Shown piece after piece: positions 6,456 through 61,297 of a DNA stretch of 64,000 nt. The translations under genes and the position numbers were made by a program. The first letter of the stretch is position 1; each line of letters begins with the position of its first letter. Below the pieces are notes generated by a model. That model ran no database searches. It had not been told where the DNA came from and saw only the letters and a list, made by a program, of their open reading frames with translations. Source of the stretch: Candidatus Aenigmatarchaeota archaeon. GTDB lineage: Archaea; Aenigmatarchaeota; Aenigmatarchaeia; CG10238-14. The stretch lies in the NCBI GenBank assembly GCA_018304545.1, contig JAGVVZ010000003.1:32987-96986 (forward strand), given 5' to 3'.

Positions 6456-6525
6456 TACTATTGTTATCACTACTATATAGTGAATTATAGAAATATTCTT
6501 AAATGAAAAGTTGCTATATAGTGGT

Positions 6526-7215
6526 ATGTCTGTAATGGGTTACGTAAGACGAATACCGGCACATGTTGCAAATATTCCTAATTATATAGCTAGGATACCT
6601 GGTTATGCTCAAGCTGCAAATAGACATCCAAATTTAACCGCAGCTGCAGTAGGTCTAGCACCTGCAGCAGGATTAGGAGCAATAGGATTATATCATATAA
6701 ATAGTGCTGAAGGTTTAGCGGCTTTAGGCCTCATGCTTGTTTATACTGCTGCTGGATCAGCCATTTTAAATGTTGGAACTAGAATCGGAAGACGTGCTGT
6801 AATAGCAGCTACAGGTGGTGCTCAAAATGCAGATAGAGCTGTCAGATTTGCCGATGTTTATGCTGTAGCCAACTTAATTGGTGGCGCTCTTAATATCTGT
6901 CCTTATTTAGGTGCTGCTGTTAGTGATGGCGTGGGTGATGCGTTCAGATGGAGAACTGCTAGAGAAGCTGCTGATGCAATAAGACTTACCGGAAATTTAG
7001 TATGTCAGCCCGCAACTACAATTGCTTCTGCTGCCGGTGCATATGTATTATCAAGAGGTGCTAGATTAGCTGAAGCAGGTGCAAGAAGAGCATATAATGC
7101 TGCTAGTCCTGCAGTGCAAGACGCATTAGCAAATCCTGCGGTGCAAGCACAGATAGGAAGAACTGCATTTGATTTGGCGGTTGCATACGTCAAGAGAATG
7201 TTGGGTTTACCATAA
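6526..7215 (+). CDS. Ala/Gly-rich hypothetical protein with several hydrophobic glycine-zipper-like segments
   Basis: About 25% Ala and 12% Gly in an otherwise Lys/Ile/Asn-rich proteome. Segments such as LTAAAVGLAPAAGLGAIGLY and LAALGLMLVYTAAGSAIL are hydrophobic. Codon third positions are still A/T-rich. The ORF track uses a TTG at 6511. Confidence 0.4.
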   Translation: MSVMGYVRRIPAHVANIPNYIARIPGYAQAANRHPNLTAAAVGLAPAAGLGAIGLYHINSAEGLAALGLMLVYTAAGSAILNVGTRIGRRAVIAATGGAQNADRAVRFADVYAVANLIGGALNICPYLGAAVSDGVGDAFRWRTAREAADAIRLTGNLVCQPATTIASAAGAYVLSRGARLAEAGARRAYNAASPAVQDALANPAVQAQIGRTAFDLAVAYVKRMLGLP

Positions 7216-7320
7216 ATTACTCAAATAAAGCAATCTTCTCATTTTTTGATTCAATATTGATAAAATTATACCACTAAAGAGTAAGTAATATTAAGTATTT
7301 GTATAAACAAATTAATCGTT

Positions 7321-7758
7321 ATGGCACTGCAACCACAAGGAGAGGATTGGTTAGGAAGATTATTACCTAATCCTGGCACTCTAGTAACTATAGGCGGATC
7401 TTTATTAGCAGGTGCTACGGTTTACGTATTAGCAGAAATCGTAGAACAAATGATAGGTGCAAGAGGGGCAGTAAAATATGCACTTGACACAACACAGTAC
7501 ATTCTCGGGCCTGTTGCTACCATAATAGCAACCAATTTATTAATGAGGATGCCTGATGTGAGTCCATGGTCTGCAGTGGTGACATATCCGGTTGCTGTTG
7601 GAGTAGCGATAGTTGGTTTTTACGGAATAGGAGCAGAAGTAACTGAATTATACAGAGAAACCTTTAATGGTGACTTCATTGCCTTTTGTATTGGTTGTTG
7701 TCCGGCCGGATTAATAGCAGGTGCCGCTGCTGGTTTGAGTGCTTATAGAGGAAGATAA
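7321..7758 (+). CDS. small Ala/Gly-rich integral membrane protein (4 predicted TM helices)
   Basis: Four hydrophobic helices (LVTIGGSLLAGATVYVLAEIV, ILGPVATIIATNLLM, VVTYPVAVGVAIVGFYGIG, IAFCIGCCPAGLIAGAAAGL). A CIGCC motif is present. Confidence 0.4.
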   Translation: MALQPQGEDWLGRLLPNPGTLVTIGGSLLAGATVYVLAEIVEQMIGARGAVKYALDTTQYILGPVATIIATNLLMRMPDVSPWSAVVTYPVAVGVAIVGFYGIGAEVTELYRETFNGDFIAFCIGCCPAGLIAGAAAGLSAYRGR

Positions 7759-8457: not shown

Positions 8458-9554
8458 AAAGACCCGTCATAGTTGGATTTGATCCCGGCACTACAGCTGG
8501 CCTGGCAATCATTGACACCAACGGCCAACTGCTCTTTCTATCCAGCAAAAAAGAAATGAAGAGAAATGAAATATTACGAAACATCATGGCACGCGGAAAA
8601 CCTATCATTATTTCTGCTGACAGAAATCCGTTGCCGCACAACGTTGAGAAACTAGCAAGCACACTGGGTTGCAGGCCATTCTATCCTATCAGATCGTTAT
8701 CGAGTTTAGAGAAAATAAAACTAGTTGGAGGCTTTTCAGACAAAATAAAAAATGATCACGAGAGGGATGCATTAGCTGCTGCCTTAGGAGTTTACAAACA
8801 TTACGCATCATTATTTTTAAAGACCAAGAGAGAACTTGAAAGGATAGGCTTGATCAAACTACACTCATCTGTTCTGGAAAAATTAATAACAAACGAAGCA
8901 GAAAACATAGAAGAAGCTATAGAGATGTCGCAAGAAAAAATACCAAAGATGGAAAAAGAAAAAATTACGCCAAAAATAGAAGTTGCTGTTCCTAAGAATG
9001 TTGCTCTTTTGGAAGAAGAACTTAAAAGAAAGAAGATGGATATTGAAATATTGAAAAAATATAATGAAGACTTGAAAAAAAGAATTGAGCATAATGATAA
9101 AGAACTAAAAATATCTTTGGAAAAAAAATCCGATGGCAATGTCGAGAGACTGAAAGGTGAGATAAGAAAAAAGAACGAGACAATAAAATTACTCAGGGAT
9201 TATAGGCAACATGAAATAAAAGATCTCATGCCTGTGATTGAAATCAAAAACATTAAAAAGGATGAGACGGATGTGTTGCATAATGCTATTGATTTAACAA
9301 ACAGAATCGTATATGCGAAAAATTCTGAGAATGCGCAAATCCTGAATGACTATAATATAAGAGCGCTCATCACTAATACAGAAAACATGTCAAAAAAAAT
9401 TAATTTTCCTGCGATCGATATTAAAGATATTTCCATTCAGCAGTCAAATGAATATAAGGTAGTTGCTGAGAAAGAACTGGAAGAAAATGTTACCAGATCT
9501 AAAAAGACAGGGATAGTTGAATGGCTGGAAACTTACAAGAAAAGGAAAATTTAA
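8454..9554 (+). CDS. DUF460-like archaeal protein: RNase H-fold N-domain plus long coiled-coil tail
   Basis: The N-terminus VIVGFDPGTTAGLAIID resembles the first strand and Asp of RuvC/YqgF-type folds. Residues 130-330 are heptad-rich (K/E). The ATG overlaps the XPF stop (ATGA). Confidence 0.5.
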   Translation: MKRPVIVGFDPGTTAGLAIIDTNGQLLFLSSKKEMKRNEILRNIMARGKPIIISADRNPLPHNVEKLASTLGCRPFYPIRSLSSLEKIKLVGGFSDKIKNDHERDALAAALGVYKHYASLFLKTKRELERIGLIKLHSSVLEKLITNEAENIEEAIEMSQEKIPKMEKEKITPKIEVAVPKNVALLEEELKRKKMDIEILKKYNEDLKKRIEHNDKELKISLEKKSDGNVERLKGEIRKKNETIKLLRDYRQHEIKDLMPVIEIKNIKKDETDVLHNAIDLTNRIVYAKNSENAQILNDYNIRALITNTENMSKKINFPAIDIKDISIQQSNEYKVVAEKELEENVTRSKKTGIVEWLETYKKRKI

Positions 9555-10021
9555 TTCAAGCTGGTTTATTTCTTTTGAAGGTTAACGTCCTGTTAATACC
9601 GTTCTATGTCATAAGCTATATCAAGTTCACTGTTTTGCCGTTGCAAACTGGTTTTGCTGCATTGATTGCTTTTATGCTGAAGGCTTTTAATTTGCAGGTT
9701 TTACAAGCCGATCAATTTCTCTATCTCGGTGCAGACAAATATCCGATAGACATTTCATTCGATTGCTTGGGTTGGAAATCCGTGTATTCACTCTCTGTCC
9801 TAGTAATTGCGACACCCGGCAATATCAAAGAGAAGCTGCATTTTCTAAAGATATGGTTACCTGTCCTGATTGCTATAAACATATTTCGTATAATATCAAT
9901 TATTTTATTAGGCAACGCATTGGGTTACCAGTATATAGAAGCTATCCATAATAATATTTGGCAGATAGGAATAATTGGATTGGTTGTAGGTGTGTGGTAT
10001 CTATGGTTGAAGAAAATGTAA
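9521..10021 (+). CDS. short exosortase/archaeosortase-family membrane protein (ArtE-like)
   Basis: 166 aa with 5 predicted TM helices. A DCLGWKS motif resembles the catalytic Cys region of exosortases. A downstream Arg (NIFRI) and Asn (LGNAL) are conserved. It overlaps the upstream gene by 34 nt. Confidence 0.45.
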   Translation: MAGNLQEKENLIQAGLFLLKVNVLLIPFYVISYIKFTVLPLQTGFAALIAFMLKAFNLQVLQADQFLYLGADKYPIDISFDCLGWKSVYSLSVLVIATPGNIKEKLHFLKIWLPVLIAINIFRIISIILLGNALGYQYIEAIHNNIWQIGIIGLVVGVWYLWLKKM

Positions 10022-15164: not shown

Positions 15165-17438
15165 CTAACATCCGTGTTTTCCGAAACATCCTACTGGCGT
15201 ATGCCTGCAACATCTCTTCCATCTTTTTGGGAAACAGCACGGCAAAAGCAAAAAGAACAACACTAATAAGAACAATAATAAGAATAGCAATAACCATGGC
15301 AACAAAGCACCTAAATCCATAGTTGGGAATTTGAATGGTTTTGTTGCTTTCAAACTAGATTCGAAATAATACACGGGAGATCCGGACGCTGCTAATGTAA
15401 AACCGTATTTTCCTGATTTGACATCGCATGGCACATCAACAACTGCTTCTACCGTCTTTCTCTGATTCATTTTCAATTGGACCTGTCCCGGCAATACGCT
15501 GAACCAGTCTGCCGATTCGCCAGATACGCTTAATGTGAATATGTCATCTGCCGTTCCTTTATTCAAAACATCGAATTTTATCGTGTTTGTTTCACAAATA
15601 TTTACCGGATATTCTTTCTTGCCGAATATTATTGGCACACCATCATTGATTACAAAATCTTCTGTCAATGAATCGCTTGAAAATGAATTGTAAACAGATG
15701 CTTTCATCTGAATAGTTCCTTCAGTGTCTTTAGGCACATTGAATGCAAACAGTATATCTCTGGATTGGGATGGGTACAATGTGTATGTGGCTGCAGAATA
15801 TGATCTCTTAAATGCCAGCATATCTGTATTTATGTTGTTTTCAACACTGCTGCCACAATTGAAAATTCTGGCTCTCATATTGGCTTGCTGCCCCGGTATC
15901 AGTTTATCATCTGTCCACAAATCTTCAACACTCAAGCAATGAGATGATCTAAACAAAGAGAACTGATCTATAACAACTCTCCTGTCAATCACAAAATCCC
16001 TTCTTACTACTCCGCAATCTTCAACTCTGAAAGATGAAAATTCTGTTTCTGTATCATCATTATCTACTATGACTTTCACTTCATGCGTTCCAAGATCCAA
16101 ATCAAACGCATCAAAATTAAATGTCGTTGAGAATTCTCTCCTATCATCCACATCCATTTCATGATCATCATCACCAACAAAGAAAAAATGTCCGTTATCG
16201 TCTTCCACATAAAACTTTGCTTCAACTCTTTCGTTGTCATTCCCTTCTTCTAATTCCACATCAACGGATAATTCTACAAGCTCGTCTTGATCTATGCAAA
16301 CGCTCGCAGGAGATGCCTCGAAATCATCCACTCTCAATTCATCATCACGATCATCATGATCTTCATCTACTGAAAATGTGTCCTGATCCTGAGCTGACAC
16401 TCCATCAACAGACGCTGTTATTTTTGCTGTATGTGTGCCATCGTTTAATCCGCTCGTATCTTCAATAAAGAATACATATTCCGACTGGCCCTCGCTCAAA
16501 TAAAATGTTATGCTATTCCTAAAATCATCATCAATATGCAATTTGGCAGTCACTGGATGCATGCCATTTGGAGCTTCAACTAAAGTGACTGTGCCTGTCA
16601 CTGTGACATCTTCTCCTTCGTCTAATGAAGATGGAGAGGCATCTACGCTATGAACGTCAATTGCAAAATCATCATCACAATCTACTGTTATCACAACCGT
16701 GTCTATTCCTTCTGCGCCTTGATTATCCCTTACTTTCAATGTGACTACATGAACCCCTTCTGGAAATGTATAAGTGAACACAACATCATTATCAATGAAG
16801 CTCCCGTCATCCCACCATTCATATGAAACAATATAGCCATCTAGATCGTAAGAATCTGATCCGTCTAAGATCGTCGTCTCGCCTGCGCACAAAGTTCTGT
16901 CTGTTCCTGCTATTGCCTGAGGCCTGACATTTAATATAGTTGTTGTAACAGGCGGGATTGTAGTTGTTGTACTGGTTGTAGTTGGGGGAATTGTAGTTGT
17001 TGGAGGAGGCAAAGTAGTTGTTGGAGGTATGGTTGTTGTAGGTGATCCGCAATTATCTGAAGACCATATCATGAAATCTCTCAAATAAGTCAGTTCTGAA
17101 CTGCTAGGATGATTATATACATCAAGTTGCTGTCTCTGGCAAGATCCTCCATTAAAACCCAAAGTTACAGGACCGGAAAAAATTTCTCTGTTACTTAAAC
17201 ACTCAGCACTGCCTTGGCCGTTGCAGGTGTATCTTTCTATTCTTCCACCCGTTCCAATTGTACATGTACCCGAATAAGGATCGCATCCGTTGCAATTAGG
17301 GTCTCCTGGATAAGCGCCGCATCTAGCAACTACACGACCACCATTTACTGGCGTGTTAGGATTATAAGCTAACACTAAACCCAGAGAAATAAGGATTATG
17401 ATGAATGTTGCCGTAATCTGAACGTTCATTTTATTCAT
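15165..17438 (-). CDS. secreted cell-surface protein with Ig/PKD-like domains, Asp-rich region and PT linker
   Basis: N-terminal signal/TM (ITATFIIILISLGLVLA). Linker TTTIPPTTTLPPPTTTIPPTTTSTTTTIPP. PKD-like block YEWWDDGSF...FTYTFPEGVHVVTLKV. C-terminal TM plus Cys-rich basic tail. Confidence 0.6.
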   Translation of the reverse strand: MNKMNVQITATFIIILISLGLVLAYNPNTPVNGGRVVARCGAYPGDPNCNGCDPYSGTCTIGTGGRIERYTCNGQGSAECLSNREIFSGPVTLGFNGGSCQRQQLDVYNHPSSSELTYLRDFMIWSSDNCGSPTTTIPPTTTLPPPTTTIPPTTTSTTTTIPPVTTTILNVRPQAIAGTDRTLCAGETTILDGSDSYDLDGYIVSYEWWDDGSFIDNDVVFTYTFPEGVHVVTLKVRDNQGAEGIDTVVITVDCDDDFAIDVHSVDASPSSLDEGEDVTVTGTVTLVEAPNGMHPVTAKLHIDDDFRNSITFYLSEGQSEYVFFIEDTSGLNDGTHTAKITASVDGVSAQDQDTFSVDEDHDDRDDELRVDDFEASPASVCIDQDELVELSVDVELEEGNDNERVEAKFYVEDDNGHFFFVGDDDHEMDVDDRREFSTTFNFDAFDLDLGTHEVKVIVDNDDTETEFSSFRVEDCGVVRRDFVIDRRVVIDQFSLFRSSHCLSVEDLWTDDKLIPGQQANMRARIFNCGSSVENNINTDMLAFKRSYSAATYTLYPSQSRDILFAFNVPKDTEGTIQMKASVYNSFSSDSLTEDFVINDGVPIIFGKKEYPVNICETNTIKFDVLNKGTADDIFTLSVSGESADWFSVLPGQVQLKMNQRKTVEAVVDVPCDVKSGKYGFTLAASGSPVYYFESSLKATKPFKFPTMDLGALLPWLLLFLLLFLLVLFFLLLPCCFPKRWKRCCRHTPVGCFGKHGC

Positions 17439-25286: not shown

Positions 25287-27545
25287 TCAATATTTCCATC
25301 CTCTGCCCCAAACATATCCTTTCTTTCCTAGTATTGGGTGAGGATAAAATTTCCAAACTAATAAAATCAAAGCAGCCATTGCAACTGCTAAACCTAAGAC
25401 AATAGGACTGGTTATGACTTGAACAAACCTGCCTGTGGGCTGAGACCTTTCTTCAACTGTAGTAATTGTTTCTGTAGGCTCAATAGGTGGCTCAACTGTC
25501 TTCGCGACTGTAGGTGTAGTGGTTGGCATAGCTTCACCTGTTACTTGCAATTTAAATTCATGAGGTATTGTGACAGTGCCATAGTTGGATACTGCAGCTC
25601 CTTTCAATATCAGTGAGTAAGTATAAATTTTGCTACCTGTTGGCATGTTGAATGTCAATTCAAAATTCTTCGTCTCGCCTTTTTTGACTTCATCGAACTT
25701 GTCCGGCTGTAATGTATACCATCTCGTATCCAATCCTTCTCCTCTTAAAAATAATTTCAAATCCCTCAGATCGTAGTTGTAGTTATTGACAAATGATCCG
25801 GATAATTTTAAAGAATTGCCTGTAGTAATCTCAACTTTCGGAGATATCCCGTTTATTGTTGCATTACCTGACGGCACGAATCTCGAACCTCCGCTCCCGC
25901 CTCCACCGCCACCGGATGAAGAAACTGGAAACGGCACGAATACATCTGTTGTCGCATTGTTATTCTGTTCGTTGCTCTCAATAATTTTATTTGTCGAATC
26001 TGCTGCTGCTTTTAATCTGTGATTGCCGCTAGCAAGATTTGTTACATTGAATGTGATGGATGTCGTCTTATTAGGAGGCAGTGTAATCGTTTTATTCAAG
26101 CCCAATATATCATTGTGATAAAATGACACGACAAAATTACTTGCGTTGTATTGACCGCTGTTGACAATTGATACATTGTACGCAACATCTCCACCTATTC
26201 CAGGAGATTCTGGCAATACAGCAACGGATTCTATCAATAGATCAGATAAATCATAAAATATTCCATCAAAAACTTTCTCGTATCCGCTACTGTTATCTAC
26301 ATTAATCAATGATTCAAAATCACCATCATTATCAGTATCTCCTTGAGCTACATCTGTTATCAGTTCATTATCAGGATCCCAATATTTGTCATAAACATCA
26401 TTTCTTTTTATATCTATCAAGAAATCTGTCATTCCATCTTTATCCCCGTCCATCACTAATGCTCTCGTATTGCTGTTAGGATCTTCATACAATTCATAAC
26501 CGTCTGTCACTATTCCATTTTTGTTTGTCGCTGTTTCATTATTGCCATCACTATCTACATCCAATTCAACAGATTCGCCAGGAAGTATATCGCATTTGTC
26601 TCCTCTCCCATTCTTATTTCTGTCTGACTGGTCAACGTTAGAAACAAAAGGACAATTATCAGCATCGTTCTTTATCCCGTCCTTATCACTGTCATCTATG
26701 CATCCATCATTATTTGCGTCATAATTTCTGGAATTTTCATTAGGACATGCATCGCATAAATCACCTAAAAAATCATTATCTGAATTCAGTTGATCTGCAT
26801 TAGATGCGTTAGCACAGTTATCATTATAATCCAAAACACCATCCGCATCCAAATCACTTGAAACCCATTTGACTGATTCTTTGAACATTATCTCTGCCTG
26901 CTCTGTCCAATATATGGAATAACTCACACCGAAGAAGACGATTCTGGCCTTAGGTGTCACGCCATATAATTCCTGGCCTGCTTCTGCTATTGCTATTATA
27001 GCATAATTTCCGTTATCATCAGAACTTGCTATTACGTTCATCTGCGTATTTACTGATCTTATGTTTATGACCGGACCATCGCCAGCTACGTGGACGAACG
27101 GCCTGTCTCCCAAAGAATAATCTTTCAATATTGACACTGAGTTGTTTTGAATTACTATCTTCTGTCTTCCGAATGATGATGTAGTGCCTGCTGATAATGC
27201 TCTAGTCCATCCCCACTCATCCAAAAACTTGCCGTCGATAACAACTGACGGGAAACTGTTCACAGGTATATTGACAATGGAATCGTCCAGTTCCTTTGAT
27301 GCGCCGACATTAGTTGGTCTTCCGGCAACAACAATAACGTCATAATCTGGATATGCAATTGGTACGTCTCTATCTATTATGGTGACATCATAACCCATAC
27401 CGTTCAATAATGACAAAACTTTCTTTTCATATAATTCAGATAAATCTGTCGCGTTCTTTACAACCAGAATTGCTGATTTTGCTTCAACTGCTGCCAATAC
27501 TAATAAGAAACTTATGAAGACGCTTATGAATGTTTTCCCATTCAA
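25287..27545 (-). CDS. cell-surface protein with thrombospondin type-3 Ca-binding repeats, CARDB-like domain and PTGRF+TM C-terminal anchor
   Basis: Signal peptide. TSP3-type repeats (DADGVLDYNDNCANASNADQ...DNCPFVSNVDQSDRNKNGRGDKCD). Gly linker SSSGGGGGGSGGS. C-terminus PTGRF-VQVITSPIVLGLAVAMAALILLVW-KFYPH. Confidence 0.65.
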   Translation of the reverse strand: MNGKTFISVFISFLLVLAAVEAKSAILVVKNATDLSELYEKKVLSLLNGMGYDVTIIDRDVPIAYPDYDVIVVAGRPTNVGASKELDDSIVNIPVNSFPSVVIDGKFLDEWGWTRALSAGTTSSFGRQKIVIQNNSVSILKDYSLGDRPFVHVAGDGPVINIRSVNTQMNVIASSDDNGNYAIIAIAEAGQELYGVTPKARIVFFGVSYSIYWTEQAEIMFKESVKWVSSDLDADGVLDYNDNCANASNADQLNSDNDFLGDLCDACPNENSRNYDANNDGCIDDSDKDGIKNDADNCPFVSNVDQSDRNKNGRGDKCDILPGESVELDVDSDGNNETATNKNGIVTDGYELYEDPNSNTRALVMDGDKDGMTDFLIDIKRNDVYDKYWDPDNELITDVAQGDTDNDGDFESLINVDNSSGYEKVFDGIFYDLSDLLIESVAVLPESPGIGGDVAYNVSIVNSGQYNASNFVVSFYHNDILGLNKTITLPPNKTTSITFNVTNLASGNHRLKAAADSTNKIIESNEQNNNATTDVFVPFPVSSSGGGGGGSGGSRFVPSGNATINGISPKVEITTGNSLKLSGSFVNNYNYDLRDLKLFLRGEGLDTRWYTLQPDKFDEVKKGETKNFELTFNMPTGSKIYTYSLILKGAAVSNYGTVTIPHEFKLQVTGEAMPTTTPTVAKTVEPPIEPTETITTVEERSQPTGRFVQVITSPIVLGLAVAMAALILLVWKFYPHPILGKKGYVWGRGWKY

Positions 27546-28102
27546 TTTGATTCACTTTTCTTTGGTTTTTTAAATAAATGTTTTTTTGGTTTTTTAGACA
27601 AGAAGATCAGTGCGGCCAGTAATGCCAATAATACCAATACCAAGCCTATCATTTGATAGTTAGACAAAGGCCATTTTTTTTCTACATACTCTTCTCCTGC
27701 TGCAACCACAATGATTTGCGCTTCTAAAACAACTGGAACGTGATTTTCTGCTGAGTATGTCGCAAGAATTACTCCCTGATATCTTCCCGGCTTCAGAACT
27801 TTTCCGGTGAAATTGGCAAACGTACTCTGGTTTGGCTCGATAAGCAATTGAGGCGTACCTATATTGATAACGTTCTTCAAATTCTCATCCGGTGCTAACG
27901 TAACGTTCAATGTGATGTTATTCTTGTTTTTAATTTCAAAGAATCCTTTAGTCATGCCGGGAGAGTCCTTTGTGACGTTGGCGTATAAGATCATTTTAGG
28001 GGGCCTTAAATGGTAGTATAAGGCTGATGCTTCTCCAACTAAAATTATCGTTAATGCCAAAAATACGAATAAAGCTAATTGTTTTTTCATAGAGTTTCGC
28101 AC
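27542..28102 (-). CDS. small secreted protein with C-terminal TM anchor and basic tail
   Basis: Signal peptide LALFVFLALTIILVGEASA. C-terminus GLVLVLLALLAALIFLSKKPKK. Its stop overlaps the start of the 752-aa protein gene (ATGA). Confidence 0.45.
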   Translation of the reverse strand: MRNSMKKQLALFVFLALTIILVGEASALYYHLRPPKMILYANVTKDSPGMTKGFFEIKNKNNITLNVTLAPDENLKNVINIGTPQLLIEPNQSTFANFTGKVLKPGRYQGVILATYSAENHVPVVLEAQIIVVAAGEEYVEKKWPLSNYQMIGLVLVLLALLAALIFLSKKPKKHLFKKPKKSESN

Positions 28103-30449: not shown

Positions 30450-32537
30450 TTATCTCTTCTTTTGCTCTCTCATTGCCTTTTGTCTGATCTCTTCGATCAT
30501 TTTCTTTCTTGCTTCTTCCATCTTCGGATCTGCTACTTTCTTCTGAACCTTTCTTTCTGCCTTAACTTCTTTCTGAACTGGCTCAGCCTTCACTTCTACG
30601 TAATCTTCATGAGCCGGCAAATAATCATCGACTTTATGTGCGCTGCCCTTTATTCTTGTTCCCCTTGGATAGAACTTGATTACCAATGCCAATCCTACCA
30701 AAGCAACAATTACATACCATCCTTTGGCCAATAATGTCGATGCAAACAAGAATGCACCTGTTGGCAGGCTTGATTTCTCTTCAGGGACTGTTGTTGCATT
30801 TACTGTAACTTGTTCGACTGTAGTTGTTGTTGCTACCGGTTTAGCTTTGACTATCAAATCAATGCTCTTCTCATATGTTGTTGTGCTTGAACCTGAAGAT
30901 GCCTGTAATGTGACAGCATATGTTTTTGCAATTGCCGTCTCTGGAACGTTAATCGTTAATGCGACTGGCTCACTTCCGCCATAAGCCAAACTATCAATCT
31001 TTGATGGTTCGAATGAATACCAAGTTGTCAATATGCCTTTAGCAGCAAACACTACATTATCCAAAGATGGTCTATGTTTCGTAGTGAATTTGCCGGAAAC
31101 TGTGACAGATGATCCTGCTTCAACTTCAGTTGATTTTGGAAAGTCGGTAAAGCCTGTTGTATCTGTTTCAGATCCCTTTGTAACTGTTAATCCACCACCA
31201 GATGAAGATCTGCTTGAGCTGCTGGATGAAGAGCTACTTGAACTTGATCCTCCTGAACTGCCGCCAGATGAGCCTCCACTGCTTCCGCCAGAGCTACCTC
31301 CTGATGACTGAGTTGTTGTGGTTGTCGTTGGCTCGCCTACCAGATATGCTGAGAAGCTCGTAACATTAGCTGTTATATAATCTCCGTCCAGAGTTGACGT
31401 GATCTTTGACCACTCTGAAGTGCAAACATTGGTATCTGGGTTGTAATTAGAACATTTGTACAAAGATATCTGGTTCTCGCTTCTGAATGAAAGATCCTTG
31501 TATTTCATTCTTAGATGAATGTTTGAAAATTCCACGCCGTTTGGCAGTTCAACATAAAATGCCCTGTAAACAGATAATGTGCTCAATGACGGCGAGACTG
31601 CATCTATTTTCAAATTGGCTTTTGTACCCAATGAGGATACGGTTGTATTTTTCAGCATGAAAATGAATTTGTCGTTGTCAAATCTGGCCTTGAAATCAAC
31701 CTTCGGGCTTGACGTGCTCATCGAACCCGTGCCGTTTATTGTCAGCGAAGACAAAACATTTGTTGTACCTGGAGACAATAAGTCAATATTCAAAGATCTT
31801 GAAACCTTCCCGTTTGTGACGTTCAAAGAAACGGATTGTGATGGGCCTGAGCATTGTCTCACCCCTCCAATAGACTTGCATACTCCTTTCGGACCGTATA
31901 CTTCCCTGCAGCAGAAATCACTGCATGATTCTGCAAATGTTGGATTGTTGCTGGTGCATGAATATTTTCTATAAACACCATTGTAGCAGCCATTCAACGT
32001 TCTCAAATCCTGACAATTGTCTGCATCTAACCCGCATGACATTATCGTGTTCTTGCACTCTCGAACAGGTTGATTGACTTCTGTTTCTATGAAGAAGTTG
32101 ATTGCACCGTCAGGGAGAGGCAGTCCGTTTTCACATGAACCGCTTAACAACAAAGTTCCTGCTTTTTCTCTTCTTATGTCGACATTCAAATTGAAAGGTG
32201 TTTTATCCTGGTTTGCTGCCATATTGATTTCTAATGGAAAAACGATATTCTTTAATGATGATGTCACATTTATTCTCAAGGTAATAGCCTGAGTATTGGA
32301 ATTTTTAATCTTCAAAGGATATTGGATTATGCCAGAGGCCTCGTCCGGAAAGTCGTTTGAATTGACTTTTATTATGCCTCCATAGTAGTTGACAGGCACT
32401 CCAAACTCATTGTATATTGTTGGATTGCCGCATGCTACTGACTCAGCGCTCTTAGTTACAAGGGAGAGTGAGACTATTAATGTTAAGAACGCCAATGCAA
32501 AAGTCGATATTAATAGTCTCTTCATGTTTTCTATCAC
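30450..32537 (-). CDS. Cys-rich cell-surface protein with (SSGG)n linker, LPTGAF+TM anchor and Lys-rich cytoplasmic tail
   Basis: Signal peptide. N-terminal module is paralogous to the 34398..36818 protein. SSGGSSGGSSGGSSGGSSGGSSSSSSSSSSSS linker. C-terminus LPTGAF-LFASTLLAKGWYVIVALVGLALVI-KFYPRG followed by a K/E-rich tail. Confidence 0.6.
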   Translation of the reverse strand: MIENMKRLLISTFALAFLTLIVSLSLVTKSAESVACGNPTIYNEFGVPVNYYGGIIKVNSNDFPDEASGIIQYPLKIKNSNTQAITLRINVTSSLKNIVFPLEINMAANQDKTPFNLNVDIRREKAGTLLLSGSCENGLPLPDGAINFFIETEVNQPVRECKNTIMSCGLDADNCQDLRTLNGCYNGVYRKYSCTSNNPTFAESCSDFCCREVYGPKGVCKSIGGVRQCSGPSQSVSLNVTNGKVSRSLNIDLLSPGTTNVLSSLTINGTGSMSTSSPKVDFKARFDNDKFIFMLKNTTVSSLGTKANLKIDAVSPSLSTLSVYRAFYVELPNGVEFSNIHLRMKYKDLSFRSENQISLYKCSNYNPDTNVCTSEWSKITSTLDGDYITANVTSFSAYLVGEPTTTTTTQSSGGSSGGSSGGSSGGSSGGSSSSSSSSSSSSRSSSGGGLTVTKGSETDTTGFTDFPKSTEVEAGSSVTVSGKFTTKHRPSLDNVVFAAKGILTTWYSFEPSKIDSLAYGGSEPVALTINVPETAIAKTYAVTLQASSGSSTTTYEKSIDLIVKAKPVATTTTVEQVTVNATTVPEEKSSLPTGAFLFASTLLAKGWYVIVALVGLALVIKFYPRGTRIKGSAHKVDDYLPAHEDYVEVKAEPVQKEVKAERKVQKKVADPKMEEARKKMIEEIRQKAMREQKKR

Positions 32538-41387: not shown

Positions 41388-41834
41388 ATGATACATGAAG
41401 AAATACGAAGAAGGATGATTAGAAGTTTTGGTGACCCCGAATTAGCATTCAAAATATATGACCTTCTCGGCGGTGATGCTAACATAGAAGCGTTACTGGC
41501 AATAGCACGAGAAAGAGGAATGAATGAAACGGGGTTTGCAGGCGTTGTATTTGTTTATGATTTTCCCGATCCATCATATGCGGGACCGACAGCGGATATC
41601 CAATTATATGGAAGACAAGCGAGTGCTTTGACATCTGACGGACATCCGAAAAATCCAGATGTTTTTCCTTACTGCCTCAGATTATCTGATGGACGAAGTT
41701 TGCCTTATAAATATGGACGTGCCTGTTTAGAAGAAACGGAAATTTTTGGCTTGGAAGCAAGAAAATGGCGTGGACTGAGAGAAGGTCCGGATACATATCA
41801 GAGATGGCTGGAAGATACAACAATCAATATCTAA
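41388..41834 (+). CDS. hypothetical protein
   Basis: 148-aa ORF. Confidence 0.35.
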   Translation: MIHEEIRRRMIRSFGDPELAFKIYDLLGGDANIEALLAIARERGMNETGFAGVVFVYDFPDPSYAGPTADIQLYGRQASALTSDGHPKNPDVFPYCLRLSDGRSLPYKYGRACLEETEIFGLEARKWRGLREGPDTYQRWLEDTTINI

Positions 41835-41913
41835 AGGACTTGTATAAAACCTATATAAGGAGTAAGAAAGTTATTTCTAAATTATTCGAATAAAGGATAG
41901 TGAAAATAAGGAA

Positions 41914-42243
41914 TTATCTAGTTAAATTCTCCAATCTCTTAACTAACTCTTCAAAAACTAATTTTTTCTTTTCTGGCGTAAGACTGAATAAAATTTTTGA
42001 AATCATATGTTTTGAAATCGTAAAAATATAATTTAGTTTTATAACACTATCTTTGGCTGCTCCGTCTTTTTTAGTCAATGGTATGCCTTTCATTTCAATA
42101 TTGCTTGTTACACCGGCAACAACGATATTATCAAATTCTTCAAAAAGAACAATAACTGGTCTTATCTTAATTTCAAAGGTATCAGTAAATTGGACTTTAG
42201 CTAGGACAACATCTCCGGATTTATACACTTTCCCATGCCTCAT
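41914..42243 (-). CDS. MazF/PemK-family toxin
   Basis: GDVVLAKVQF...IRPVIVL...NIVVAGVTSN follows the PemK/MazF SH3-like barrel pattern. 109 aa. Confidence 0.55.
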   Translation of the reverse strand: MRHGKVYKSGDVVLAKVQFTDTFEIKIRPVIVLFEEFDNIVVAGVTSNIEMKGIPLTKKDGAAKDSVIKLNYIFTISKHMISKILFSLTPEKKKLVFEELVKRLENLTR

Positions 42244-42448
42244 CTTCCTTATTATCCCACAATTCTTTCATTTTATGTTGTTGTATTTTATGTAAAAATT
42301 CATCATACTGATTCATTGATTTTAATTTCTTCAAGACGGTTATAACCTTCATTATAATTTCATTATACGTTTCCCTAGGATATTCCTTCATTTCTTTCAA
42401 AGATTTGACTACATTTTTGTCTAACTGTATCGTTGTAACGTTAGCCAT
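42221..42448 (-). CDS. putative cognate antitoxin
   Basis: 75 aa. Upstream of the toxin and overlapping it by 23 nt. N-terminus MANVTTIQLDKNVVKSLK. Confidence 0.4.
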   Translation of the reverse strand: MANVTTIQLDKNVVKSLKEMKEYPRETYNEIIMKVITVLKKLKSMNQYDEFLHKIQQHKMKELWDNKEDEAWESV

Positions 42449-42578
42449 TATATATCACCTATAGTATATATATAGAAAGTATATAAGTACTTTACTATAA
42501 ATCAATACTAGAAGAAACAGGATATCTGCTTGAAAATTATTAAGTTACAGTAAGTTTTAATTTCCTTCGTATTATAAA

Positions 42579-42938
42579 TTGGTTATGTCTCACACATATA
42601 AGAGATCGGATCTACCTCAAGGTGTAGATTTAGATTTGGTAACTACAGAAGAGCATAGAATACGAGGCCTATATTATCGCGCATTAAGAGAATTGGTAGA
42701 TGGGAGAGCGCACATTCCTAATAATTGGATCAGGTGGATAAGACCAAGTGCTCAAACTTTATATCAGGCCGGCCTAATAGATATCAAGGAAGAAGACGAT
42801 CCAGATATATTACGCCAAATTAAAAAAAGAGGATCTCACCGCAAACCTGGCTATGTTTACTGCAGACTACTTCATTACGCGTTAGCTTTATATTTGTTGG
42901 GGAAATATGAACACCGAAAACCTGTGATAGAAGACTGA
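42579..42938 (+). CDS. hypothetical protein
   Basis: 119-aa ORF. Confidence 0.3.
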   Translation: MVMSHTYKRSDLPQGVDLDLVTTEEHRIRGLYYRALRELVDGRAHIPNNWIRWIRPSAQTLYQAGLIDIKEEDDPDILRQIKKRGSHRKPGYVYCRLLHYALALYLLGKYEHRKPVIED

Positions 42939-42985
42939 ACAATTGGTCTAAGTTAAATTTATAAAATTCAACTTTTGATCAACTT

Positions 42986-43936
42986 ATGATTAGTATGAGA
43001 GTTGTAAATGAGGGCGGATTCAGCCAGCAGCATGTAAGCATGATCTATGGAATGGCCAACAATGCCGCTAGTACACTGGGATTGTATGTTGACAGACTGC
43101 ATCTGACTTTACCCAAAGATGTCAGAATAATTATGGATTCAACCGGCGAGCAGTTATCATCCTATCAAAGAACAGGAATCGGACAGCTGCAAGTTGACTA
43201 TGATTCTGGAATAGTATACATGTCTACGACACATGATTTTCTGCGCAGGACATCAAAAAACACAATGAGAAGGCTTGTTGAGCATGAAATGTGCCACTGC
43301 AAAGATTATGCAGATGGCCTGTATGGAAGAGACATGAAAGTGTATACAAACAGGCAAGCTATGAAAGAGTTTCCCATGCATCTTGCATATTTCTTTGAAA
43401 TTTTTATGGCTTACACGGATTACAGAGTTTCGCAAAGACAGATCAAAGTCTTCGGAGGAGAGGGATATCGGGTTTATCATCTTTATGGGCTAAACGAATT
43501 TCTGCAGGAAATGGAAAAAGAAGCTGCTCGAGGAATAATGAATAGAGATGAATCCCAAATAAGACAGGTATTTTTCACTTGCTTGAAAGAATATATCAAA
43601 AGCAGACTATGCGGTTATAGGATTAAAGGAATGAGAAACGCTGTGTTTCAAGTCGCCGATTTAACCAAAGGATGCTTTGACGACATATCAGCAGCTCCGA
43701 TCATCTGGGATGAGGCAGGCAAGCTTCTGAATTTTGTTGTCTTTGATTTGATATTGAAGATTGATTTGCCTGCTACATACTTAAGCGATGTCGTGCAACC
43801 TAATAATGAGCATGGAAGCGTCGGCATAGACAATAAAAAACGATTTTTAGGTATCAGAGATAGAGAATCAGTGAGAGTGGCAGAGGGAATAGAAAGGAGA
43901 TTTGATGATTTTCTAAATTCATATGCTAACCCGTAA
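42986..43936 (+). CDS. hypothetical protein with HExxH motif (possible Zn-metallopeptidase-like)
   Basis: A single HEMCH motif lies in VEHEMCHCKDY. No other family features recognised. Confidence 0.3.
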   Translation: MISMRVVNEGGFSQQHVSMIYGMANNAASTLGLYVDRLHLTLPKDVRIIMDSTGEQLSSYQRTGIGQLQVDYDSGIVYMSTTHDFLRRTSKNTMRRLVEHEMCHCKDYADGLYGRDMKVYTNRQAMKEFPMHLAYFFEIFMAYTDYRVSQRQIKVFGGEGYRVYHLYGLNEFLQEMEKEAARGIMNRDESQIRQVFFTCLKEYIKSRLCGYRIKGMRNAVFQVADLTKGCFDDISAAPIIWDEAGKLLNFVVFDLILKIDLPATYLSDVVQPNNEHGSVGIDNKKRFLGIRDRESVRVAEGIERRFDDFLNSYANP

Positions 43937-44047
43937 AGTTTTCCTAGATCAGACAGAAATATGTTTGCTTGACACTCCAACATATTGATTTTATGATCTC
44001 CTTGGAATGTTTATAAAGACTATTTACAAAGAATTTACCCGATAAGA

Positions 44048-44386
44048 ATGGGGGAAGTTCAATATTTAGATTTACATAAAGTAGAATTATATGGTTGGCA
44101 TAGATCAAGGAGTGGAAACGACATTCGTAGATATCAGGAATTAATTAGGAGTGGAAGTGAAGCTCCTCCTATTCATGTTTGCGAGATTGGACCTGATGAG
44201 TACACACTAGATATGTATTACACAGTGAATAGAGGTCTTGATAATGCTCTTCTAGATGGCGGACACAGGAGAGCTAAAGCTTATTATGAAGAAAGAGTGC
44301 CTCTTCCAGTTATTCTTAGCAATAAGGCATTTGCTGTACCTCCAGAAAGAAGAGTTCCTATTTCAAAGATGGAGCTTGTAGACTAA
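44048..44386 (+). CDS. ParB/Srx-like nuclease-domain protein
   Basis: LLDGGHRRAKAY matches the ParB N-terminal-domain DGHHR/GxxR motif. 112 aa with no HTH. Confidence 0.45.
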   Translation: MGEVQYLDLHKVELYGWHRSRSGNDIRRYQELIRSGSEAPPIHVCEIGPDEYTLDMYYTVNRGLDNALLDGGHRRAKAYYEERVPLPVILSNKAFAVPPERRVPISKMELVD

Positions 44387-44512
44387 CGCAGATTACGTGT
44401 ACATTATTTCGAATTGGAATATGGGTTGAATGATCATCTTTGTGTTTAATCTGCCACTACAATCATGGCAACAATCAGGAAATAATTAATTCTAATAATT
44501 AATATATTCTAT

Positions 44513-45274
44513 ATGAAAGAAGAATCAAAAAGCGTTTATGACTTTCCTGAGATTTATGACATTGTGATGAAGGGCAATAAGGAAACGGCCTTCTACTCAT
44601 CTTTTGTTTCAAAGGCAAAAAACATATTGTATTGCGGTTCGGGCAGCGGGAGACTGTTAATAGAATTCTTGAAAAAACATCCCGACAAAAATATCACCGG
44701 CATCGATGAAAACCCAAGCATGATTGCTGAATGCAACAGAAGATTGAAAGATGCCGGCTTAAAGGCAGAGATCATCCTAGGCGATATATTGTCCTACGAT
44801 TTCAGGAAAAAGTTTGATCTGATACTCATGCCTTATGCATTTCTGAATCATATAAAAGATGAAGGACATTTGCTGCTGTTCAAAAGATTGAAGGGTTTCA
44901 TGGTCAAAGATGCGAAAATAGTCTTTGACATATTCAGCCCCTTTTTCAATCCAAGATCAACTGATAGTAACTTGCAGGTAGATGACAAGAAATTAGTGAA
45001 GAATGAGGAGGGAGAATTTTTTGTTGAATACACCTACAAATATGATTTTCTGGATCAAGTGATGGATCAAATAACAAAAGTAGATAAATTAGAAGGCTGT
45101 GCTGTAAAAAATACGATGGTATTTACTGTCAGATTCAGATACTTCTTTCCAAAAGAGTTGGAAGGCGTATTTGCTCTTCTTGACTACAAAACAATAGATA
45201 AGTTCGGCGATTTCCAGAAAAATCCCATAACGGATCTTTCGGAGAGTTTAATTTATGTGATTTCCAACAGATAA
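44513..45274 (+). CDS. class I SAM-dependent methyltransferase
   Basis: Motif I ILYCGSGSGRLL. An acidic residue follows a beta strand (ITGIDEN). Post-I and motif IV region (DLILMPYAF). Confidence 0.7.
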   Translation: MKEESKSVYDFPEIYDIVMKGNKETAFYSSFVSKAKNILYCGSGSGRLLIEFLKKHPDKNITGIDENPSMIAECNRRLKDAGLKAEIILGDILSYDFRKKFDLILMPYAFLNHIKDEGHLLLFKRLKGFMVKDAKIVFDIFSPFFNPRSTDSNLQVDDKKLVKNEEGEFFVEYTYKYDFLDQVMDQITKVDKLEGCAVKNTMVFTVRFRYFFPKELEGVFALLDYKTIDKFGDFQKNPITDLSESLIYVISNR

Positions 45275-45309
45275 TTTAAATTTCACATCCAAATAATATT
45301 AGTGATATA

Positions 45310-45879
45310 ATGGGCTGCACAAATTTTTTCAAGTATCATCCCGATGCGACACTGTCGGATTATGCCAAAAGATTTGGATATGATGCAAACGCTCTTGAAA
45401 GAGCTGTGAGAAAGACTGAAGAATACAGAGAGATGAGATCGTTCTCTAACGAGCAGATAGTGCTGAAAGAGGTTTTGCTGTCTTTGGATGCCAGAGGTCT
45501 TACTGACACATTATATGAAAGACAAAGACTCGAGCAGGTTTTGCCTTACGTGACTACCCAAAGTGCTGTGCATAGTGGATTCTCATTTACACCTATAACA
45601 ACTCAAACGGATTCTATGAGCAACGTATACGTACAGACAACTGATACCCAGCAATATGCAATGGACGCAACAGCATATAGGACAACGGAAGAGCAGAGAG
45701 TGAGGATGTATGAAGCTCTATATGAATCTGGAGAAGATGATGTAGAAGAAACACCGGAAGAAACGAAAGATGTTATGACATTACTATTGGCTTTACAGCT
45801 TATTGACGATGAGGAAAAGATGGCGAGTATAGAATTTGAAGAATCGGATGAGTTAATCGTTGAAATGGTTACTTCTTAA
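45310..45879 (+). CDS. hypothetical acidic protein
   Basis: 189-aa ORF with a D/E-rich C-terminus. Confidence 0.35.
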   Translation: MGCTNFFKYHPDATLSDYAKRFGYDANALERAVRKTEEYREMRSFSNEQIVLKEVLLSLDARGLTDTLYERQRLEQVLPYVTTQSAVHSGFSFTPITTQTDSMSNVYVQTTDTQQYAMDATAYRTTEEQRVRMYEALYESGEDDVEETPEETKDVMTLLLALQLIDDEEKMASIEFEESDELIVEMVTS

Positions 45880-49578: not shown

Positions 49579-50520
49579 CTAAACAATGCCCCATCCTCTA
49601 AATGTTAATGCACCTTGTGTGAACGCAGAAGTAAATGTCATTCTTGCATTCGTAAATTCAAGCCATTTGCTCTGGGTCAAACTAAAACCTACAGTCAGAT
49701 TGACAGCACCATCGAAAGGCAAAGCTCCGTTACATGTAGGCAAGTTTATGAAATCCGTCATATAGGTGCCTCTGTGGACTTTAAATCTCACGGTACCTGG
49801 AAAATTTGTGCCGCAAACATAAACGCTGGCATTTTTGACTCCTATATTTTTCACAATAATTGTGTTGTTAGCCAGACTAACATTGTTGAGTGGCAGTGGT
49901 GGAAAATTCAATTGGCCCGATCCGTCTGAATACTGAACCTGCAATACGGCATCGTTATCAAAAACAACTAGATTCTGAGAGAACTTGCTCAATTGAATGT
50001 TGCTTATATTGAACAGGGAATGAGTAGCATTGCTGCCTGCTATATTTGCGATAGACCGGTTTATTATATCAACCCTGAATAAAGTCAGATCCTGGAATTG
50101 CGTCTTAAAGGTTTTTTTGTTCTTGACTTTCATCAGCCCTGACCCTTCACACAATATTCTGTTGGTCTGGAAACTGGAGCAAGAAGATGCATTAAGCATC
50201 ACCAGCCCTATCTCTACTGGCTCTTTGATCAGCTGCGTCACATTAGCAACCTTGTACCTGAAAACCTTTGGAGTTAATTGCGTACCGGTGCTGATATAGG
50301 TGGCGTTAGCCGCGAATGAGGACGAGGTGATGTTATAGAAAAACCCGCTGAATGTGCTTTTCTTAGGTGTATAAGCAGTTATGTTGGCGTTGGATGAATT
50401 AAGGGAGTTTATTGTCCCGTCCGTACCGAATACATCAAAAGACACTGATGCTGCGTTGGCAGACGCAGCTAAAAAAAGAAAGAAAAAGCTAAAAATTAAA
50501 ATGGAGGTGCTTGTCCGCAT
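49579..50520 (-). CDS. secreted Asn/Thr/Ser-rich beta-rich protein
   Basis: Signal peptide ILIFSFFFLFLAASANA. Many N-x-S/T sequons. No anchor. Confidence 0.5.
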   Translation of the reverse strand: MRTSTSILIFSFFFLFLAASANAASVSFDVFGTDGTINSLNSSNANITAYTPKKSTFSGFFYNITSSSFAANATYISTGTQLTPKVFRYKVANVTQLIKEPVEIGLVMLNASSCSSFQTNRILCEGSGLMKVKNKKTFKTQFQDLTLFRVDIINRSIANIAGSNATHSLFNISNIQLSKFSQNLVVFDNDAVLQVQYSDGSGQLNFPPLPLNNVSLANNTIIVKNIGVKNASVYVCGTNFPGTVRFKVHRGTYMTDFINLPTCNGALPFDGAVNLTVGFSLTQSKWLEFTNARMTFTSAFTQGALTFRGWGIV

Positions 50521-51122
50521 AACATCATTCTATTTTGCATTAATTTTATTTCTGGTTCAGATAAATCAAATAATTACCAAATAAGAATAATTTTATCTTA
50601 TTATAAGAAAAGAATTTCTATTATAGAGTAAATAAGTTTATATCTACTATATAATGATTCTGATAGGAAAAAGAAAGAATATTTCTATTTTATAGGAAAA
50701 AATATTCGTTTTAAGAGGAAATTTATTACAGAATAATCGCAAAATATATACACGTATCCTCGACACTTTGAGGAAAATTTTTAGGTTCAGATAAAGTTAA
50801 ATATAATTTCTGAACAATAAAGATATGCAAAAACTCATCTTAACGCCGGAAGAATGTGGCGAACTGGGTCATATGTCGCCAGAAAACACGGATATGATCT
50901 CGAAGCGTATGAAGTGACAGATCCTCGAGATATCATCCATCACACGCCTCACAAAAGTTATGGCGAGACTGGACTTGGGGGCGTGCTGGAAGCATATGAT
51001 AGACAGCACTTACTGATTGATATATGCAGATCTCGAGGAGTTACATGCATTGACGATCTGATAAGAATTTATTCTGAATAATATGTTGCATAAAAACAAT
51101 AAACAATACTATAAAATTTGAT

Positions 51123-53822: not shown

Positions 53823-54007
53823 TTGAAAAGCTAAAGCAGCTGTTACAAGCCAGCTAAGAGCATTAGAGACTATGAGTAATGGATGATAATGTCTTTGTTG
53901 TATTTCAATCTACCTAAGATGTGTATATGTTATAACTTACTGGGAAATACTATTTATACCGAATTCAAACGAAAATGAAAAAATATGTCACGACTATAAA
54001 GAAACGA

Positions 54008-55489: not shown

Positions 55490-55983
55490 GGTAATTATAT
55501 AGAAAGAAAATCATTTATAATTCACTGCAAATTTGTAACTCTTTAGTTGTAATTGCAATGATTTCTTTCAAATAGAAAGTAGCATTTTTAGTGTCAGAAA
55601 TTTAAAGTTTGCTTCACAAAAATATTATAAAATATGGTTTATTAGAGTGATGAAGATGGGTTATGGAAAAAGGAGTGGACTAAGTTTGGCAGAAAGAATA
55701 CTAAGAGATCCGGAATATAAACCAGAAGACGGACATTATGAAACTTTAGCAGGACAGTTGAAATCTTGTCAACCAGATACAGATGTCTATAGAACTATTC
55801 AATCCGCAATGGAAAGGGCAAAAATATTTAGATCTAAACGAGGTTCTCTCCCAGATTCTTCTTTTTTATACAGGCTAAAATGATAGATCTTATTACTAAG
55901 TCATAATTTTTAGTATAACTTATCGTAAACATTCTTTGACTTTCTTTTCAATTCTACTATAACATTTCAAACAAACAGAAAAC

Positions 55984-60936: not shown

Positions 60937-61006
60937 TATTACGAACCTAAATGAGAGTAATACATTAATTTTGTATTCCTAGAATAAAAATGTTTTCTAT
61001 AAAAAA

Positions 61007-61273: not shown

Positions 61274-61297
61274 GAAGAAAAAAAGAAATTGAATGAT

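Follow-up and report, generated by a model that had tools for sequence, protein, structure and literature searches.

A short archaeosortase-family protein and a TG-centred anchor module of secreted proteins in a mostly Aenigmatarchaeota clade: a candidate enzyme and signal

Does a stretch of DNA from a Candidatus Aenigmatarchaeota archaeon encode both a membrane-embedded sorting enzyme and the signal that it reads? The question is raised by a 64 kb segment of contig JAGVVZ010000003.1 (positions 32,987 to 96,986; hereafter the window), where a gene for a protein of 166 amino acid residues (aa) is found at 9521..10021 on the forward strand, 15 and 20 kb from two genes for large secreted proteins read from the other strand. 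In an initial annotation the 166-aa product had been described as an ArtE-like archaeosortase, and the two secreted proteins as bearers of a distinct PTG[R/A]F signature followed by a transmembrane helix and a basic end. Pairs of archaeosortase and signal attach the surface layer and adhesins in many archaea and, to our knowledge, ArtA/PGF-CTERM is the only such pair that has been tested by experiment. DPANN archaea live attached to host cells, with their surface proteins as the host interface, and as far as we know the anchoring of these proteins is essentially unstudied. Here we describe what, judging from sequence comparisons, would be an unnamed archaeosortase clade and a candidate cognate signal of unusual build.

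The 166-aa open reading frame (ORF) almost certainly encodes a member of the archaeosortase/exosortase family. An NCBI protein 100% identical to its product bears the name 'archaeosortase/exosortase family protein [Candidatus Aenigmarchaeota archaeon]', and the sequence scored 47.6 bits against TIGR04178, the NCBIfam exosortase/archaeosortase signature (cutoff 23), and 40.1 bits against Pfam PF09721 (cutoff 25.7). Two further marks of the superfamily, the Cys/Arg/His triad and, in the structure model, a polytopic membrane protein, were found. Among the named models the best was XrtH (TIGR04177), with 42.1 bits over residues 17–164 against a cutoff of 86. Scores were likewise below cutoff for the pacearchaeosortase model NF033505 (36.1 bits, residues 23–162, cutoff 80), XrtX (34.6 bits, cutoff 170), XrtY (31.9 bits, cutoff 160), ArtB (24.9 bits, cutoff 150), ArtF (21.1 bits, cutoff 150) and ArtA (TIGR04125; 20.9 bits, cutoff 75). 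The ArtE model, TIGR04124, gave no match for the 166-aa protein at E ≤ 10. The name ArtE-like is thus not supported and was rejected, the best named models being XrtH, pacearchaeosortase and XrtX, all of them below cutoff.

Relatives of the protein were gathered by a profile search of 1.84 billion proteins, which returned 1347 matches at E ≤ 1e-3 and, after clustering, 136 representatives. Many of these weakly matched models of the XrtH, XrtX, XrtY and ArtB type, and TIGR04124, silent for the window protein, does score 14 of the 136 (E ≤ 1e-10). Scanned with a sequence pattern, 185,579 species genomes yielded 17 sortase loci, of which those labelled with a phylum were nearly all from Aenigmatarchaeota and one from Micrarchaeota; 51 further loci came from a scan of metagenomes, for a total of 68 surveyed. 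On its sequence, the enzyme is placed as a short-form archaeosortase of an unnamed, mostly Aenigmatarchaeota (DPANN) clade.

The initial annotation had likened a DCLG motif and conserved Arg and Asn residues of this protein to the catalytic residues of the family, and these are present together with a conserved His. The DCLG motif corresponds to D81-C82-L83-G84 (nucleotides (nt) 9761–9772), with the codon of Cys82 at nt 9764–9766, of Asn120 at 9878–9880, of Arg123 at 9887–9889 and of His143 at 9947–9949. The motif and the latter three residues are invariant in an alignment of seven close homologs (44–100% identity). Cys, Arg and His form the catalytic triad inferred for exosortases and archaeosortases (Haft 2023, bioRxiv 10.1101/2023.06.07.544157), and mutagenesis of Haloferax ArtA found Cys173, Arg214 and Arg253 to be critical (PMC9263693). 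Among the 136 relatives, Asn120 is retained in 134, Arg123 in 135 and His143 in 134, and at position 82 a Cys is seen in 108 and a Ser in 27.

An AlphaFold2 model computed from the seven-sequence alignment (mean predicted local distance difference test score 82, predicted template modelling score 0.74) has five long helices (residues 2–33, 39–55, 85–97, 102–134 and 136–165) and a small beta element in the 56–84 loop, just ahead of Cys82. By the positive-inside rule, the N-terminus and the loops bearing Cys82 and His143 would face outward, with Arg123 in the outer half of helix 4. No solved relative was found in the PDB, either by sequence or by fold. Taken with the family matches and the conserved residues, the ORF most likely encodes a functional polytopic cysteine endopeptidase/transpeptidase. 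A separate observation concerns the nucleophile: the presence of Ser in place of the nucleophilic Cys in 27 of the 136 relatives, with Asn, Arg and His retained, suggests a Ser-nucleophile sublineage among the short exosortases and archaeosortases.

Two proteins of the window carry the proposed signal. One, of 752 aa, is encoded at 25287..27545 (minus strand) and combines a signal peptide and TSP3 repeats with a CARDB domain and a NEW3-like region (Pfam CARDB, TSP_3); its NCBI name is 'thrombospondin type 3 repeat-containing protein', and it is here termed a class II carrier. Its anchor module (25290..25466, minus strand) reads ...EERSQ-PTGRF-VQVITSPIVLGLAVAMAALILLVW-KFYPHPILGKKGYVWGRGWKY, where PTGRF (nt 25425–25439, residues 703–707) directly precedes the hydrophobic segment and the 21 residues after the helix are KFYPHPILGKKGYVWGRGWKY. 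The other, of 695 aa (30450..32537, minus strand), a class III carrier, has a signal peptide and a NEW3 region (Pfam NPCBM_assoc). Its module (30615..30794, minus strand) reads ...EEKSSL-PTGAF-LFASTLLAKGWYVIVALVGLALVI-KFYPRGTRIKG..., with PTGAF at nt 30750–30764 (residues 592–596), again directly before the hydrophobic segment. A charged tail of about 67 residues follows the helix, and the 54 of them that lie past the module form a cytoplasmic tail extension (30453..30614, minus strand) ending in EEARKKMIEEIRQKAMREQKKR. The motifs are thus found before the helix as the initial annotation had placed them, but neither protein has the simple helix-plus-basic end that it had described.

In the ORF products of the window (17,816 aa), PTG.F was observed twice against 0.15 expected, both times at the start of a helix. 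Over their last ~170 aligned residues the two carriers are paralogs of each other (29% identity, E 8e-12), and since the paralogy runs across the motif region they count as one observation and not as two independent ones. The motif is absent from the other C-terminally anchored secreted proteins of the window, of 186, 757, 1650 and 554 aa; for those encoded from 27542, 55984 and 61298 this had already been claimed, and both the translations and the profile of the tails described below agree with it. The profile found exactly the two carriers in the window, the 186-aa ORF not being among its reported matches at E ≤ 10, and no further carrier was found in an extra 7 kb walked past the end of the window.

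Beyond the window, a tail survey of the 68 sortase loci took in every ORF that combines a signal peptide with a single C-terminal helix, which gave 51 non-redundant proteins. The dipeptide [TS]G was found at the helix start in 23 of them. A TG within the 20-aa juxtamembrane window occurred in 23/51, compared with 8.1% of windows from the protein bodies (binomial p 1.8e-12), and the pattern P..TG-hydrophobic in 17/51 against a background of 0.4% (p 1.7e-28), these p values being inflated by the non-independence of orthologs, with eight or more architectures independent. A chance origin of the motif, an alternative already considered in the initial annotation, was rejected on the basis of this enrichment at the helix boundary and of the PTG.F count in the window.

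In an alignment of 23 such tails Gly is invariant and Thr is present in at least 90%; most tails have a Pro, floating 1–4 residues upstream, and a hydrophobic residue stands at +1 or +2. Ser and Thr are frequent in the 40 aa that precede the motif (25%, compared with 17.5% overall), and a stretch of this kind has been noted for archaeosortase substrates (Haft 2023, bioRxiv 10.1101/2023.06.07.544157). The initial annotation had proposed modelling the tails as a profile, and a hidden Markov model (HMM) was built from the 23 aligned sequences. It scored members, including four outside the training set, at 17–80 bits and generic helices at no more than 12 bits; the 752-aa and 695-aa proteins, both in the training set, received 68.7 and 57.9 bits. 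A protein search with the alignment of the 23 tails gave 8000 helix-word candidates and one true extra member, P0172, and nothing was found in viral contigs searched with the tail alignments.

The strict PTG.F motif was dropped in favour of P-x(0-3)-[TS]-G-hydrophobic, given the variants met in orthologs and other carriers. Orthologs of the 752-aa protein at seven related loci (L004, L011, L014, L016, L020, L044 and L045) keep the order SPLTG-hydrophobic, helix and KYxFGKGW, with the motif itself as SPLTGF, SPLSGF, SPLTGL, SPLTGT or EITGL. The closest ortholog, P0159, has PTGRL, hence the Phe is variable. In the orthologs of the 695-aa protein (L004_458, L011_334, L014_624 and L045_159) the motif reads SPMTGFF, KPTGLF, VPTGAF or IPLGSF, and P(M)TG.F, WY, the helix and a long tail are kept. 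Further variants in the clade are PLGITGF, PMTGF, LGLTGAF and others. The claim of a distinct PTG[R/A]F signature thus stands insofar as a conserved juxtamembrane signature exists, and is too narrow insofar as it describes a local form.

Carriers comprise at least eight unrelated secreted architectures across the clade. They include CARDB proteins of ~315 aa, a Cys-rich protein of 480 aa, an FN3 protein of 249 aa, PHQFYG/Cys-rich proteins of 268–306 aa, an FN3 + WxCxxWSxC protein, TSP3 proteins of ~750–880 aa, NEW3 proteins of 458–695 aa and a small Ig-like protein of 193 aa. The CARDB-type carriers of ~315 and 480 aa share the pattern P[LM]xITG[FMW]FL.AL.S.WYW...RKPSRKKPYEYKHKSKKK, the 249-aa FN3 carrier has LGLTGAF, and the 268-aa and 306-aa PHQFYG/Cys-rich carriers have GSLTGL and SLSITGLL. 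Two carriers have an end of the classical kind: the FN3 + WxCxxWSxC protein of L022 finishes with PLGITGML, the helix and a short basic KVERKK, and the 193-aa Ig-like protein of L045 with PSTGKF, the helix and ARR. The length of the region after the helix accordingly ranges in relatives from 1–6 aa, in these two, to ~70 aa.

From these alignments, PTGxF is read as a local variant of a clade-wide module, P-x(0-3)-[TS]-G-hydrophobic with a helix and a basic tail bearing a conserved Tyr, and we consider it very probable that the module is real. It would span ~55–60 aa, with a Thr-rich linker, P-x(0-3)-T-G-hydrophobic abutting the helix and the basic cytoplasmic tail, and it appears to have been shuffled onto many unrelated secreted proteins.

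The conserved Tyr stands in a KK[GP]Y.[YFW] context after the helix and recurs across carrier classes. Tails of class II contain GKGW (within KYxFGKGW) and often terminate in ...LLTKW, and those of class III have EEARKK..IR.KA at the extreme C-terminus, with the last ~20 residues kept in orthologs; the end of the 695-aa protein (EEARKKMIEEIRQKAMREQKKR) can be compared with those of its orthologs in L004 (EEARKKVLNDIRKKAIEEDRKR) and L011 (KAKRKVLEEMRKRAIDMDKKLK), which show the terminus to be conserved. Conserved motifs after the helix were recorded in the window (25290..25352 and 30453..30614) and at L011, L014, L031/L055, L044 and L045. We know of no classical or otherwise described sorting signal with cytoplasmic motifs of this kind.

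The proximity of sortase and carriers recurs among the surveyed loci. Of the 23 loci whose downstream flank is 9 kb or longer, 16 have a carrier 4–9 kb downstream of the sortase, with one to three carriers per locus and always on the opposite strand; upstream, no carrier was found in the 20 loci with a full upstream flank. The syntenic block also holds genes for a Hef helicase, XPF, a DUF460 protein, a coiled-coil protein and topoisomerase I (TopA), and in the window the sortase gene begins inside the upstream DUF460 gene, with an overlap of 34 nt. L001, a relative at 70% identity, has the same succession of Hef helicase, XPF, DUF460, sortase, 491-aa coiled-coil protein and topoisomerase I, and the more distant L004 keeps Hef, sortase and TopA without XPF and DUF460. 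No obvious functional link is seen between the sortase and its Hef, XPF, DUF460 and TopA neighbours.

Directly upstream of each class II carrier stands a small secreted Ig-like protein of 160–190 aa, the two forming a two-gene unit. In the window the partner is the 186-aa protein (27542..28102, minus strand), the gene of which shares its last 4 nt with the start of the 752-aa gene, and the pair is kept in L004, L011, L014, L020 and L044. The partner is anchored by a plain helix with a KRGRV-type tail and has no TG module; because it is anchored in this way within the same operon, the TG module is not needed merely for membrane anchoring.

How the enzyme and the module might work together can be outlined by analogy. 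The precursor would be exported by the Sec pathway until its C-terminal helix and basic tail stop the transfer, leaving it in a type-I orientation, as their sequences suggest. By homology with ArtA, the sortase would then recognise the TG signature at the outer membrane boundary and cleave it through an acyl-enzyme at Cys82. In a last and speculative step the ectodomain would be moved to a lipid or another acceptor, or released, with the helix and cytoplasmic tail left behind as a separate fragment. A motif that abuts the helix without a spacer is the pattern seen in substrates of membrane-embedded sorting enzymes (Haft 2023, bioRxiv 10.1101/2023.06.07.544157).

Compared with the eight attributes set out for such signals in the same work, a hydrophobic transmembrane segment is present in the module, and a signal peptide was found in both window carriers and in all complete surveyed carriers, the survey filter itself having required one. 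Where a short terminal cluster of 2–5 basic residues is called for, K/R residues follow the helix in most tails, but the tails are extended and hold conserved motifs. Carriers are unrelated to each other across the clade, with the architectures listed above, but not inside the window, where the two share a domain. As for multiplicity, there are two carriers in the 64 kb window and two to three within the 10-kb flanks of relatives' loci. As for homologs that might bear other signals, the TSP3 region matches the MYXO-CTERM protein model MtsC, and the C-terminus of the class I carrier matches PACE-CTERM-PROT. The motif is not at the C-terminus, standing 50 residues from the end in the 752-aa protein and 104 in the 695-aa protein. 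The motif, helix and basic residues of a PGF-CTERM-like tripartite layout are thus all there, but to call the layout the same, as the initial annotation did, is an overstatement, given that it does not lie at the extreme C-terminus and is followed by conserved cytoplasmic motifs.

That this sortase cleaves this TG module is the best available explanation of the locus, and one toward which we lean without great assurance; the pairing is plausible by analogy with known systems and from a synteny that includes housekeeping genes. Several points weigh against it. Every surveyed locus was ascertained through its sortase, so co-occurrence is biased, and seven loci with a full flank have no carrier. 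The proximity of sortase and carriers may simply reflect a gene order that small genomes have kept. T and G alone are fixed, a weaker signature than one in which three or more residues hardly vary, the level taken as a criterion. The distance of the motif from the C-terminus counts on the same side, and sequence-specific conservation of the tail is unexpected for a peptide that is cleaved and discarded. On a rival reading, the TG motif, helix and KKxY tail would make up a permanent type-I anchor whose tail acts inside the cell, for instance in adaptor binding, signalling or positioning, the sortase having other substrates and its proximity to the carriers being inherited. This alternative, which we hold to be a serious though less probable one, accounts for the conservation of KK[GP]Y, GKGW and LLTKW, for a 67-aa tail kept to its last residues, for the position of the module and for the unrelated housekeeping genes of the block. 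It would also accommodate the two window proteins encoded from 55984 and 61298, which bear a PGF-pre-PGF domain (95 bits), elsewhere a mark of archaeosortase substrates, with a helix, a basic tail and no recognised motif; however, no motif is common to the two PGF-pre-PGF tails. A permanent anchor leaves unexplained why the extracytoplasmic T-G and its upstream Pro are the most conserved feature over unrelated ectodomains, and why the operon partner makes do with a plain anchor. ArtA processes a tripartite structure of HVO_0405 that is not C-terminal and can leave a sizeable C-terminal fragment (PMC6098224, PMC9263693), and because of this the non-C-terminal position is not disqualifying.

Cleavage and a working tail could also be combined. 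In such a T-G-centred DPANN system the module would be two-sided, with outer cleavage anchoring the ectodomain to a lipid or releasing it and the helix with its conserved tail serving as a second functional product, which we judge unlikely. Less likely still is that the module is a real processing signal cut by another enzyme, with its gene outside the window, such as a rhomboid or rhombosortase-type, CPBP/Rce1-type or signal-peptide peptidase or a classical sortase. P-L-T-G and L-P-T-G do resemble LPXTG, and the 64 kb covered of a contig of ~187 kb, together with short flanks, are a minority of the genome; yet a Pfam scan of 36 of the 53 window ORFs revealed no classical sortase, rhomboid or CPBP protease, the motif stands right against the helix without an LPXTG-type spacer, and the archaeosortase is the sole candidate enzyme both present and syntenic. 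The idea that the PTGxF likeness reflects chance or paralog ancestry and has no function is highly improbable. The paralogy of the window carriers across the region speaks for it, as does the weakness of a five-residue motif in two proteins taken alone, but it is largely refuted by the survey, the enrichment and the tail HMM: the motif class occurs on all the unrelated architectures above and at dozens of loci, the effect at the helix boundary stays large even though its p values (~1e-12 to 1e-28) are inflated by orthology, and both PTG.F matches in the window fall where a helix begins.

Among described systems, the closest to the candidate pair of sortase and TG module appears to be that of Pacearchaeota, NF033505 with NF033506, which are read as enzyme and target from the names of the models. 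Both enzymes are short (~167 aa) archaeosortases of DPANN lineages. A full-length class I carrier matched NF033506 (PACE-CTERM-PROT, a putative S-layer protein) with 26.7 bits (E 2.1e-6, model positions 472–616 of 627), below the cutoff of 110, in a region that takes in its last domain and the first part of the tail. The systems differ in lineage (Pacearchaeota versus Aenigmatarchaeota), both scores are far under their cutoffs (80 and 110), and the TG module is found on many architectures, whereas PACE-CTERM-PROT is one dedicated protein. Eight tails scanned against the named NCBIfam CTERM domain models matched none at E ≤ 10, the best lead being 10.6 bits to the full-length PACE-CTERM-PROT.

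With ArtA/PGF-CTERM of Haloferax volcanii the candidate pair shares the superfamily, the types of catalytic residue, a motif abutting the helix and then basic residues, a Thr-rich linker upstream and secreted surface proteins as carriers. ArtA is, however, a much larger enzyme, its signal is PGF instead of TG-hydrophobic with a floating Pro, and PGF-CTERM tails are shorter than those of the TG module, which hold conserved motifs. XrtH, XrtX, XrtY and ArtB resemble the window enzyme in length (~155–170 aa) and align with it end to end, but their cognate signals (e.g., VPXXXP-CTERM of ArtB) are unlike the TG module. ArtE is also a short archaeosortase-family protein. Sortase A and LPXTG recall the present case in P-L-T-G and L-P-T-G, in the layout of helix and basic residues and in Cys/His/Arg chemistry, but sortase A has an unrelated fold, and in LPXTG signals the motif is usually set off from the helix by a spacer (Haft 2023, bioRxiv 10.1101/2023.06.07.544157), which is missing where the TG motif abuts the helix. 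The resemblance to LPXTG would be convergent.

Other features of the window were also recorded. The PGF-pre-PGF domain normally precedes a PGF-CTERM signal in Euryarchaeota. In the window it is found (TIGR04213, ~95 bits) in two secreted proteins, of 1650 aa (55984..60936, minus strand) and 554 aa (61298..62962, minus strand), the tails of which consist of a T/P-rich linker, a helix and basic residues and lack both PGF and the TG module; for the 1650-aa protein the tail HMM gave 6.8 bits, and for the 554-aa one it reported no match. Both may be alternative sortase substrates or simply membrane-anchored by their helix. They belong to a surface-protein island, a run of seven consecutive genes (49579..62962, minus strand), at least five with signal-peptide-like leaders, which includes a CBM96-domain protein, a Cys-rich protein of 645 aa and a Pro/Thr-rich protein of 253 aa. 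A 757-aa PKD/CARDB surface protein (15165..17438, minus strand) has a helix followed by a Cys-rich cytoplasmic tail, PCCFPKRWKRCCRHTPVGCFGKHGC, with 7 Cys in 25 aa, which is kept in the 95%-related genome of L007; metal binding and acylation are possibilities for it.

The G+C content of the window is 31–42% throughout. It is slightly raised (0.40) between the Hef helicase and XPF genes, where two Ala/Gly-rich ORFs of 234 and 145 aa lie (6511..7758, plus strand) with no Pfam match; L001 has a single 135-aa ORF in the same gap. A patch of small ORFs without family matches (41388..45879), with a ParB-like DGGHRR motif in 44048..44386, is possibly a mobile-element remnant.

With a module alignment and HMM from 23 tails, a clean gap in score and a candidate enzyme, putative substrates can be listed in Aenigmatarchaeota genomes. 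The conserved cytoplasmic tails distinguish the module from every described CTERM signal and raise the question of whether the part left after cleavage would itself be functional. On the two-sided reading, if true, one precursor would give rise to a surface protein as well as to a cytoplasmic peptide tethered to the membrane, which is possibly relevant to the surface by which these episymbionts contact their hosts. If the pairing of sortase and TG module were wrong, there would still be an anchor domain that is widespread and has been shuffled between ectodomains of unrelated kinds, and an orphan clade of sortases.

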